A DNA stretch of 42,001 bases. Origin: a plasmid. Location: the sequence record NZ_CP048251.1; one strand, written 5' to 3'. Below, in pieces: positions 12,001 through 15,000 of the stretch. Made by a program: the position numbers. Every line of letters starts with the position of its first letter. Positions within the stretch are counted from its first letter, which is position 1.

Positions 12001-15000
12001 CAATGGGCAGTCCCTACGGCTGATGAGGTCAAAGAATTGTGGTTAGCAACGGGAATGACTCAAAAACAAGTTAGCAGGTATTTAGGGTTGAAAGACACCA
12101 ATGGTAGAGCTTTCAGGAGATTCATCAGTGGGGAATCATCCATCACATATGCCTATTGGGTTTTATTGAGCTTGTATGTGGGTATTGAGAAATTTTGGTA
12201 AATAAAATTTTAGCCGCTAAAATTGCTTGACAAATAGGATAATTTATCCTATAATACAAACTATATCGGACGGAGGCTCCTATGGACAGAATTAAATCCA
12301 AAGCTGGAAAAAAAATGTTTGAAGTGGTTTATATGGTGTTAGCTATCGCCTATTTGCTTTTCCCTGTCCGATGGTTTGCTTGGATGTACAGTTTCTATGT
12401 TTTGTGCCAAATGCTGTACCACTGGAATATGGCTGATTCATGGATTTATATCGGCAAATTTATCTTGACGTTCGGTATCGTAATGGGATGGCTCACTTTT
12501 GTTATCGCGTTCAGAAATAAAATATGAGGTGTAGGAATGAAGATTTTAGTGGTGGCAAACCAAAAGGGCGGGGTAGGAAAAACGGCTATGTCGCTTCATC
12601 TTGCCTGGCATATGGAAACAGTTGGACTGAGGGTTTTAGTAATTGATTTGGATACGCAGGGGAATGCGAGTTACTCTCTTCGAGACAAAACGTGTCTTTT
12701 CGGTTCCGGCCGTTTGTTTGGAAATATGGAAGATGCGGATTTACATATGCCCGGCAACGTTTCACTGGCTCTTTCCCCGGCGACAAACGATTTGGCTAAC
12801 GTGCAGAATATGACTTTGCAAAATGCTGTTCAGTCTTTTACGCAAAACATCGACAAATTAAAAGCGGGCGGGCAATTCGATGTCTGTATTATTGATACTC
12901 CGCCCAGTTTAGGTAACACGTTGGCGGCTGCACTGGCGGCCGGGGATTATGTGTTATGTCCGATCGAGTTGGAAACATACAGCCTACAAGGAATTAAACA
13001 GATGGCTGCAACAATAGGCAATATCAGAAAAGTGAACAGCAAATTGGCTTTTTTGGGTATATTGCCAAGTAAGGTCGATATGAGGAATCCGCGCCATAAA
13101 AGGCATTTGGAAGAAATTAAAATGCAGTATAATGAAATTGTAATACCGCATATTATCGGATTGAGGAGCAGTATCGCAGATGCGTTGTCTTCCAGCCTGC
13201 CGGTTTGGAAAATCAAGAAAACGGCAGCAAGAAAGGCGGCGCAGGAAATGAAAGCCGTTTCTAACTATGTTTTAAACAAAATGCAAGGGTAAAATTTATG
13301 AATAACAGTAATTTGGGTTTGGAAAACATCGGCAATCTCAGCGAACTTTTGGGTAATGCAGAGGTCTCATCAGGGACGCCGCTGCGCCTGCCCCTTGCTT
13401 CAATCAAAGAAGACCCCGATCAACCAAGAAAAGAATTTGACGAAGGAAAAATTCAGGAACTAGCAAACAGCATTCAGGAGAGAGGCGTGAAAACACCCAT
13501 ATCGGTGCGTCAAAGTTCCGAAGAAGGGGTCTATGTCATCAACCACGGCGCACGACGTTACAGGGCTTCATTGCTGGCAGGGCTGAGCGAGATTCCCGCA
13601 TATATCGATCAAGATTACAGCCTGATCGATCAGGCTGTTGAAAATATCCAGCGCGATAATCTAACGCCAAGGGAAATCGCCGACGTAATTGGCCGATTGC
13701 TGGCAGAGGGGATGAAAAAGGGACAGATTGCCGAAAAAATGGGCAAATCCCCTGCTTTCGTTACCCAGCATGCAAACCTGCTGGACTTACCCGAACCTCT
13801 GGCCAACGCATTCAACTCGGGGAAAGTATCCGATTTGACGGTAATCAATGACCTGAACGCATTGTATAAAAAAGAACCGGAAGCGGTGGAAGATTTGCTG
13901 TCTAACGAAGACGAGATTACCCGTAGTTCGGTAAGGAATTTGAAAGAGTTTTTAAACTCGGATCCTAAAAATTCTGCTGATGCCGATCATGAAAAGCCAT
14001 CCAAGGCAAAAGTGAAAGAGAAAAAGCCGGAAGATCCTGACAAACTGAAAAAAGCTATTGTGCAGGTAATGTATCAAGGCCAACTGGCAAGGCTGGTTTT
14101 GAACAAGCGCGGATTGTCTGGCGATGAGGTATGGATTAAGTTTGAGGAGTCCGGCGAAACAGAATCTGTTCCTTGTAAAGAAATTTCCGGGATTGTTGCA
14201 GTTATTGAAGGATAATACTGGGAATTTATTATAATACCCCCCCGTTTTAACGGGCTGCCCAGTTTTACTGCTGCCGGTATGTGCAAAATACCGAATCAGC
14301 AGGTTGATCAGAATTCATTAAATTAAATCATTTTAAAATCAAATATTTATGGGGGGGGGGGGGTATATTAAAGACTGTTCTGTTAGAATTATTCACATCT
14401 TTTTTGAAAATTTTTAGCAGAATGGAAGCAGAAAAACAAAGAGTGCTGGTATTGAACAAACAGCATTTGTTCGAGACAGAAAAAGACGGCAAATGGATTA
14501 CGCAGGCGGTTAAGCCTGCTCCTGCCAATATGAAGCCGGGAATTTATTTGCTGCATACGGCCAAATCTCCTCAGGATTCTGTCAGGTACGAAGGGCAAAT
14601 CGTTTTTCAAAATGACAGCTATGTTTATCAGAAAACACGACAGTCTATAGTCAAATACCCGTGTTCTCTATTTTCTTCCGTTCCGTCGATCGGAGAAGTG
14701 GTCTCAATCAGTGTCAAGGACAAAGCGGCAACAGTAGAAAAGGCGGGTATCGGAGAGAAAAAAACTTTAACGCGCTAAATGAAATTTTAGCCGCTAAAAT
14801 TTTAGGATAACACCATGAATGAAGATAAAGGGCTTGTAGCTAAAGCTGTTGCGGCTGAAACCGAACAAGAAGAGTTGTTTGAAAGCAGGCAGGTTATTGA
14901 GGAAACTTTCGCCGGTGTGTTAAATACTTATGTCTTGGAAAAGACAGAACAGGTTGAGCGCATAGAAGAAAAATTGGAGCAATTGATTTCCGGGCAAATG

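Follow-up and report, generated by a model that had tools for sequence, protein, structure and literature searches.

The 42,001-nucleotide stretch of sequence record NZ_CP048251.1 analysed here (the window) carries two near-identical consensus promoters, each with an operator for the repressor KorB (OB) upstream and a 17-bp palindrome (TAGGATAAWTTATCCTA) in its spacer, and the question raised by this locus is which protein reads the palindrome, and what that protein does beside KorB. The window is essentially a near-complete Neisseria gonorrhoeae tetM conjugative plasmid (pConj), as judged from its 42,001 bases and the presence of tetM. A 6-kb segment that includes the first promoter (9400-15400) matches 32 conjugative plasmids of N. 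gonorrhoeae in PLSDB at 99% identity or more, both promoter cassettes are present in all 32 of the N. gonorrhoeae plasmids of that database, and the gene order trbB, trbA, ssb-trfA, oriV, korC, kleE, incC, korB, kfrB, kfrC is that of the pConj/pEP5289 family as described by Pachulec & van der Does 2010 (PMC2848598). The pConj literature that we found does not address how the genes of this plasmid are regulated. Our analysis points to KorC, a homologue of the IncP-1 repressor of that name, as the protein on the palindrome, and suggests that KorC carries a module with which it would dock onto KorB.

The two promoters (site 1 and site 2) are made of the following parts, given in positions of the window:
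12209..12221, unstranded: OB of site 1, an exact TTTAGCCGCTAAA, 5 bp upstream of the -35 of the kleE-incC-korB promoter
12227..12255, plus strand: promoter 1, predicted sigma-70, TTGACA (12227-12232), 17 bp, TATAAT (12250-12255), 12/12 consensus positions
12235..12251, unstranded: OC-type palindrome of site 1, TAGGATAATTTATCCTA, a perfect 8-1-8
34342..34354, unstranded: OB of site 2, an exact TTTAGCGGCTAAA, 6 bp upstream of the -35 of the genetic-load promoter
34361..34389, plus strand: promoter 2, TTGACA (34361-34366), 17 bp, TATAAT (34384-34389), 12/12 consensus positions
34369..34385, unstranded: OC-type palindrome of site 2, TAGGATAAATTATCCTA, a perfect 8-1-8

At both sites the palindrome fills the spacer, beginning 2 nt after the -35 and sharing its last 2 nt with the -10. 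The predicted transcription starts are at ~12262 and ~34396; downstream of promoter 1, the ATG at 12282 follows a GGAGG Shine-Dalgarno sequence. In the window, the palindrome is matched five times at three mismatches or fewer (0.06 expected), TAGGN9CCTA three times (0.19 expected) and OB seven times at two mismatches or fewer, six of these being exact (1.19 expected). An exact TTGACA-N17-TATAAT occurs only at these two places in 42 kb, and three matches appear when up to one mismatch is allowed, against 0.19 expected. Chance is excluded as the source of this pattern of sites. The initial annotation had described two near-identical arrays of OB, TTGACA, palindromic spacer and TATAAT, which our reading of the sites and the match counts bear out; its coordinates hold for site 1, while those of site 2 start one position late, OB beginning at 34342. 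The 13-bp TTTAGCSGCTAAA lies directly upstream of the -35, and the plasmid encodes a KorB with both KorB and KorB_C domains, identifying this element as a KorB operator. Six KorB sites have been counted on this type of plasmid before, and 86% identity over 52 bp was reported between the two regions (PMC2848598), although that report describes the likeness without speaking of promoters, operators or palindromes.

What kind of operator is the palindrome? The klcA and kleA promoters of the IncP-1beta plasmid pADPe read OB, the KorA operator OA (GTTTAGCTAAAG), TTGACA, N3, TAGGACATTTTGTCCTA and ATAT, where TAGGACATTTTGTCCTA is OC, the operator of KorC. The pConj palindrome is identical to this OC at 15 of 17 positions and occupies the same place in the promoter. 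We scanned 185,579 reference genomes, one genome per species, for the design OB-N8-38-TAGGN9CCTA, and obtained 63 loci, ~58 of which are real promoters of OB-OC design. The placement of OC, between -35 and -10 and overlapping the -10, is the same in pADPe and in these ~58 genome loci, and a homologue of the KorC DNA-binding domain is encoded within the fetched DNA of most of the 63. Because the same TAGG...CCTA palindrome is found in the same place in IncP-1beta and in the scan loci, with KorC homologues present there, the palindrome is, judged by its sequence, the Neisseriaceae version of the IncP-1 KorC operator OC, and KorC very probably binds it. A second operator first put down as different and unassigned thus has a close homologue in IncP-1 OC, as found at IncP-1beta klcAp/kleAp, and the KorA+KorB architecture suggested at that stage gives way to a closer IncP-1 parallel, namely the triple OB-OA-OC promoter minus its OA. 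Six OC-type sequences had no match in the literature that we searched, and a KorC-like locus of Robbsia contains no TAGGN9CCTA.

The palindrome is kept in the loci L004, L005, L073 and L075-L079, with symmetric variants in Eikenella. The cassette layout of L005 is identical to that of pConj. In L004, a Rep3 replicon with the site at 1467-1520, an identical palindrome stands between differing flanks, with OB shifted upstream by 10 bp, and in L077 (around 11819-11870) OB is displaced by 9 bp. In the plasmid of Eikenella exigua the layout is retained and the operator, TAGGTTATTTTAACCTA, differs by the mirror-symmetric changes A5-to-T and T13-to-A, in the company of a diverged KorC. When six promoters from five replicons, whose KorC proteins are 46-100% identical, were aligned, only OB, -35, OC and -10 were conserved. 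Across all loci, moreover, the helix-turn-helix (HTH) region of KorC differs between the groups with AT-type and GC-type operators. The displacement of OB in L004 and L077 amounts to 9-10 bp, or about one helical turn, away from the -35, with OC and its spacing to the -35 unchanged, which suggests either a helical-face constraint between KorB and KorC or a tolerance of it.

The proteins that would act at these sites are encoded immediately around promoter 1:
11854..12201, plus strand: korC, 115 aa, with an N-terminal extension (residues 1-36) and a DNA-binding domain of the XRE-type HTH kind (residues 37-115)
11854..11961, plus strand: the part of korC encoding the extension, with its core TTVLLTPYQAFQAKKWH at 11872-11922 and F17 at the position of KorA Y84 and TrbA F104
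13298..14215, plus strand: korB, ParB-family, with KorB and KorB_C domains; its F218 corresponds to RK2 KorB F249

The korC gene ends 8 bp before the OB of site 1. Its product shows 37% identity over 79 residues to the KorC of IncP-1beta plasmid pADPe (E 3e-20), and the open reading frame (ORF) at 11854-12201 is already annotated as KorC (CP002441; also PMC2848598). Relatives in other contigs are 88, 67, 60, 57 and 56% identical, and that of the Eikenella exigua plasmid 46%. No Pfam or NCBIfam family covers KorC and its extension, the sole match being a sub-threshold one to Homeobox_KN. A fold search with the KorC model gave weak matches throughout (best E 0.26), all to XRE/Cro-type HTH repressors and including controller proteins and anti-CRISPR-associated repressors that bind promoter palindromes. 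Of the two repressor candidates named by the initial annotation, the HTH ORF at 11854 stands as the best one, being a KorC homologue, although its KorA/TrbA-type KorB-interaction module had been missed; the other, the 'xre' protein, is TrbA and has candidate operators of its own (see below). The accompanying statement that no korA is present agrees with our searches, as tblastn of the window finds no KorA DNA-binding domain and the window contains no OA.

The extension is where KorC of pConj departs from its IncP-1 relatives. IncP-1 KorC starts 2-9 residues before the DNA-binding domain. The pConj protein is longer by 36 residues at its N-terminus, and these form the most conserved segment of KorC in all eight variants (T-x-LLTPYQA[F/Y]-x4-W), down to 46% identity. 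A tblastn search with the C-terminal peptide of KorA matched the C-terminus of TrbA and, weakly, the first 23 codons of korC. A hidden Markov model (HMM) built from 19 TrbA/KorA C-terminal domains and run against all 1,212 six-frame segments of the window scored TrbA at 2.4e-19 and KorC at 3.5e-5, the next match being at 1.4; reciprocally, an HMM of the extension finds TrbA at 8e-5. Aligned with the module by hhalign, the extension reaches 97.2% probability (E 3.3e-11, 27 columns), and a full-length KorC profile searched against the PDB has KorA chain 8qa9_C, residues 73-103, as its top match (E 0.07). These matches indicate that the extension is homologous to the dimerisation and KorB-docking module of KorA, TrbA and KlcB. 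The module serves as a dimerisation domain common to the three proteins (PMC2665229), and its helix docks on helix alpha10 of KorB, where KorA Y84 or TrbA F104 stacks on KorB F249 in a contact that is required for cooperative repression (PMC13584720). At the corresponding position of KorC, F17, each of the eight variants has F or Y. On the KorB side, pConj KorB matches RK2 KorB (8qa8) at E 4e-68, and F218 does not vary among the KorB sequences from pConj, L004, Eikenella and pADPe. Scored against sub-profiles of the module, the extension does about equally well with TrbA, KorA and KlcB, any of which may be its source.

The same V-L-P module is found in IncP-1-like plasmids in the gene that directly precedes korC, which is klcB or a shorter relative, as seen in L002 (2050-3321), L018, L024, L057 and L072, and the module copy of L057, LPAYQAYQVRIW, is very close to the KorC extension of Eikenella, LTPYQAYSVRIW. 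Since klcB and korC are immediate neighbours in IncP-1, with klcB upstream, one way in which the long KorC could have arisen is a fusion of klcB with korC.

A comparison between the long and the short form of KorC revealed a simple rule. Each of the 59 OB-OC promoters that fall outside the Neisseriaceae-type group has an element between OB and the -35, which is OA in 49 of them and a TTCGAT..ATCGAA-like or other palindromic element in the remaining 10 (an assignment made partly by eye). KorC is of the short form in these loci wherever its gene lay in the fetched DNA, and each of the six variant-element loci checked, out of the 10, encodes a KorA-like protein. On the other hand, all 15 promoters that go with a long KorC (the two in the window and those of L004, L005, L006, L008, L058 and L073-L080) have nothing between OB and the -35, and KorA is not encoded in any of the long-KorC loci examined. 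The pConj promoters, accordingly placed among the latter, have no adjacent OA of the kind found at RK2/R751 klcAp/kleAp. The apparent loss of KorA and OA and the apparent gain of the module by KorC coincide in every locus examined, and the simplest reading of this coincidence would be that KorC took over the role of KorA as partner of KorB. In L018, L024, L027, L043, L062, L067 and L072, canonical OA is replaced by a TTCGAT..ATCGAA-like palindrome or by TTTCATGAAA and KorA-like proteins are encoded, which suggests KorA variants of changed operator specificity.

Taken together, we hold it probable that the two promoters are co-repressed by KorB and KorC, with KorC as the docking partner of KorB. 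Two strong sigma-70 promoters would be kept shut by two plasmid-encoded repressors: KorB would load at OB, centred near -48, and a KorC dimer would sit on the 17-bp palindrome, centred near -20, where it would cover the spacer together with the first 2 nt of the -10 and so exclude RNA polymerase. The N-terminal beta-strand-plus-helix module of KorC, in place of that of KorA, would dimerise and dock onto KorB helix alpha10. KorC would thus most likely have two roles, the recognition of OC and the capture or locking of the KorB clamp. A single KorC might in this way give the cooperative repression that IncP-1 obtains from KorA and KorC at OB-OA-OC. KorC-mediated repression at OC is predicted from the homologies, whereas for direct contact between KorC and KorB we lean only somewhat towards yes; promoter activity and the extent of the operons we infer from the DNA. 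Beyond the known OC/OB kind of promoter, what appears to be new is the putative KorB-docking module on KorC and the missing OA.

Several observations weigh against this proposal. The operator comparison was made with IncP-1beta DNA, the RK2 OC being taken to read TAGGGCATAATGCCCTA. IncP-1 KorC, moreover, reportedly acts without cooperation with KorB. The module match is short (27 columns), with borderline values both in the search with a single sequence (E 0.57) and in that against the PDB (E 0.07). AlphaFold predicts a helix at KorC residues 13-26, yet with low confidence over residues 1-40. The module is C-terminal in KorA and TrbA and N-terminal in KorC (residues 6-32, with a linker of ~10-15 residues before the DNA-binding domain), for which reason its geometry relative to KorB may differ. 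The same module also dimerises and occurs in KlcB, so that a KorB contact need not follow from its presence. Finally, the pConj literature that we found holds no binding, footprint, transcription-start or reporter data.

The most serious competitor grants that KorC binds the palindrome but lets the extension only dimerise, or heterodimerise with TrbA, with KorB and KorC acting independently at adjacent sites and no lock between them. The module is, after all, the dimerisation domain of KorA and is present in KlcB, which binds no DNA (PMC2665229), and the near-equal scores of the extension against the TrbA, KorA and KlcB sub-profiles fit this explanation as well. Yet short KorC proteins do without the module, the aromatic position is strictly F or Y opposite an invariant F218 in KorB, and the loss of OA and KorA is paired with the gain of the module in every locus examined, and we therefore regard dimerisation alone as unlikely, if worth keeping in mind. 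At the other extreme, the palindrome might have no operator function, the twin arrangement being a duplicated strong promoter whose spacer is palindromic by chance; given that the palindrome stays exact while its flanks diverge, that changes are symmetric where they occur and that the TAGG...CCTA frame of OC is seen in more than 60 loci, we give this hardly any credence.

A different protein might also read the palindrome, and TrbA is the obvious one to consider, as it combines an HTH with a C-terminal KorB-interaction domain and might cooperate with KorB as at RK2 trbBp, where the operator of RK2 TrbA overlaps the -10. The relevant features are:
9546..9911, minus strand: trbA (the earlier 'xre'), an HTH repressor with a KorA-like C-terminal KorB-interaction domain, in which F103 is the counterpart of KorC F17
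9443-9456: 14-mer TTCGATATATTGAA or a variant of it, upstream of trbB
17184-17197: same 14-mer type, in the traK-traJ (oriT) intergenic region
19909-19922: same 14-mer type, near the end of traI, upstream of traG
11924-11937: same 14-mer type, inside korC

The ORF at 9546-9911 matches the NCBIfam TrbA equivalog at 169 bits (cut-off 96), and its C-terminal domain matches that of KorA at E 2e-7. The 14-mer, counted with its one-mismatch variants, occurs four times in the window against 0.31 expected, and is a candidate TrbA operator; the copy at trbBp is part of a 28-bp inverted repeat, and TTCGAT..ATCGAA elements, related to the 14-mer, occupy the OA position in some plasmids. The RK2 TrbA regulon consists of tra and trb genes. 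The first three positions (upstream of trbB, at traJ/Kp between traK and traJ, and upstream of traG) match this regulon, which makes TrbA an unlikely binder of the palindrome. As the palindrome is, besides, homologous to OC and directly follows korC in L004, L005 and L077, with no TrbA gene in the partial contigs fetched there, we find control by TrbA very improbable. Another plasmid regulator, such as the MarR-like protein encoded at 38284-38715 downstream of promoter 2, would have in its favour that MarR-family proteins bind palindromes over promoters and that its gene belongs to the promoter 2 array and is kept in L074 and L076. Against it, the annotated Eikenella plasmid shows no MarR gene and retains korC-OB-OC. 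The small L004 contig, whose genes were judged by Pfam labels, retains korC-OB-OC as well. Homology of the operator to OC extends, besides, across the IncP-1 plasmids, and such a regulator seems to us scarcely plausible. Co-repression by KorB and KorC, with the KorC module docked on KorB, accordingly remains the explanation that we adopt below.

The genes that would fall under this control are the following:
12282..12527, plus strand: kleE homologue (orf81), with weak homology to IncP-1beta KleE (E 3e-5) and annotated as KleE
12537..13292, plus strand: incC (ParA ATPase), Pfam AAA_31/CbiA/ParA, annotated as IncC2
34481..35002, plus strand: orf173, first gene after promoter 2, with no Pfam or NCBIfam match
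35364..39321, plus strand: array of epsilon1-zeta1, epsilon2-zeta2, a MarR-like gene and a resolvase gene, downstream of promoter 2

Promoter 1 lies 26 bp upstream of kleE, which is followed by incC and korB; with korB among its genes, this partition operon would be under autoregulation by KorB. Within the genetic-load region, promoter 2 is oriented divergently from the tetM leader. In 30 of the 32 PLSDB plasmids, similarity to the window stops ~20 nt past the -10 of promoter 2, a matching 5' untranslated region (UTR) being present in the other two. In a tetM-less 39-kb plasmid (the one inspected), the epsilon/zeta operon directly follows promoter 2, while in the window and in two metagenomic relatives a different first gene is inserted ahead of the array, whose epsilon/zeta, MarR-like and resolvase genes are the same. 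No plus-strand terminator was found before epsilon1. From the plasmid comparison and the terminator result, promoter 2 is best described as the predicted promoter of the epsilon/zeta toxin-antitoxin array, and orf173 as variable cargo, that is, a variant-specific insertion. The genes first placed under promoter 1 (orf81-parA-parB) are therefore kept, under the names KleE homologue, IncC and KorB, while the 'orf171' placed under promoter 2 is a 173-codon ORF found in particular variants, most variants having epsilon/zeta directly. A riboregulator in the 5' UTR after promoter 2 was considered and rejected, as this region folds no better than shuffled sequence (z = +1.35).

Promoter 2 is a duplicated copy of the promoter 1 cassette. 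As the two promoters share this cassette, partition and post-segregational killing would form one KorB/KorC regulon, which would fire briefly after entry into a new cell. About 100 bp from promoter 2 and back to back with it, a minus-strand promoter at 34240-34268 (11/12 consensus positions, with an extended -10 (TG)) faces away from it toward the tetM leader peptide, and is probably the Tn916-type tet(M) promoter.

How does this arrangement compare with known ones? The klcA/kleA promoters of RK2/R751, where KorA, KorB and KorC act, resemble those of pConj in their consensus-like sequence, in the OB upstream and the TAGG-N9-CCTA filling the spacer, and in their occurrence as twin copies on one plasmid with a kle gene downstream. 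They differ in that pConj has neither an OA between OB and the -35 nor KorA, in the inner operator bases (TAGGATAA in pConj, TAGGACAT or TAGGGCAT in IncP-1) and in the genes driven, klcA and kleA in IncP-1 as opposed to the partition operon and the toxin-antitoxin array in pConj. With KorB promoters that employ a partner module for KorB F249, pConj shares an OB placed 4-6 bp upstream of the -35, a dimeric HTH repressor over the -10, an aromatic beta1-alpha module on the second repressor, and, in F218, the KorB counterpart; here, however, the partner has a KorC-family DNA-binding domain, its module is N-terminal, and the contact is predicted. Besides KorA and TrbA, the 'V-L-P' dimerisation module is known from a third protein, KlcB (Bhattacharyya & Figurski 2001; PMC2665229), which has the same module as the KorC extension but, unlike the long KorC, lacks a DNA-binding domain and carries the module internally; the KlcB sub-profile gives the extension no higher score than those of KorA and TrbA do. 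The KorC of the IncU plasmid RA3 is likewise a small repressor of the same name that coordinates several backbone modules; we liken the two by description only, and claim no relatedness.

A third, imperfect OC-like palindrome was found upstream of korC:
11544..11560, unstranded: TAGGACAAAATATCCTA, between the oriV (TrfA) iterons

It contains the IncP-1beta half-site exactly, and the Eikenella plasmid lacks it. A weak promoter-like match oriented toward korC, TTTACA-18-TATCCT, overlaps this palindrome, which might be a site for korC autoregulation or a link between KorC and replication. Two further near-matches were set aside. That at 9519-9535 (minus strand, TAGGTTATTTTATCCCA) is not palindromic and lies just past the trbA stop codon, beside the trbA terminator hairpin; it resembles the Eikenella-type OC (14/17) and is probably a relic or due to chance. 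That at 10347-10363 is a single half-site coinciding with the ribosome-binding site and ATG of trfA.

The other four OB sites of the window are at 9917-9929 (the trbA/ssb divergent region), 14786-14798 (between kfrB and kfrC), 17728-17740 (the end of traJ) and 23402-23414 (inside the topoisomerase gene). All four positions are kept in the Eikenella plasmid (L008 33748, 39198, 2273 and 7697), where only the genetic-load copy is absent. In the oriV region, three TAACCA repeats at ~11-bp spacing lie downstream of the iterons (window ~11685-11720, L005 100-135, L006 95-120) and, being kept in three replicons, are probably the AT-rich unwinding element of oriV. The stretch between oriV and korC contains a pair of short GC hairpins built as CTGTCGCC-TAC-GGCGATTTAGA (11743-11761 and ~11789-11808), with counterparts at L005 140-205 and L008 35716-35775, in which stem changes keep the pairing (GTCGCC/GGCGAT versus GTCAGCC/GGCTGAT). 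These hairpins may constitute the G+C-rich part of oriV, act as weak terminators or serve as a binding site.

In gonococci, pConj is responsible for the spread of tetM and for mobilising the beta-lactamase plasmid. These results assign both of its consensus promoters to a KorB/KorC circuit, under which partition and epsilon/zeta addiction would fall. They also bear on the question, raised in 2026, of whether KorB has clamp-locking partners beyond KorA and TrbA (PMC13584720), and the candidate third partner comes with specific residues, KorC F17 and KorB F218, as well as with a natural comparative control in the form of short KorC with OA against long KorC without OA. We give slight preference to the view that KorC of the Neisseriaceae type makes up a third class of clamp-locking partner for KorB, one that unites a KorC DNA-binding domain with an N-terminal docking module of KorA/TrbA type and that replaced the KorA and KorC pair as the three-repressor promoter OB-OA-OC collapsed to the two-repressor OB-OC, and that korC-OB-OC-parA-korB makes up a portable cassette that is also used on non-IncP replicons such as the Rep3 replicon L004. 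A plasmid regulatory network would then have become simpler through the transfer of a small protein-interaction module between repressors.

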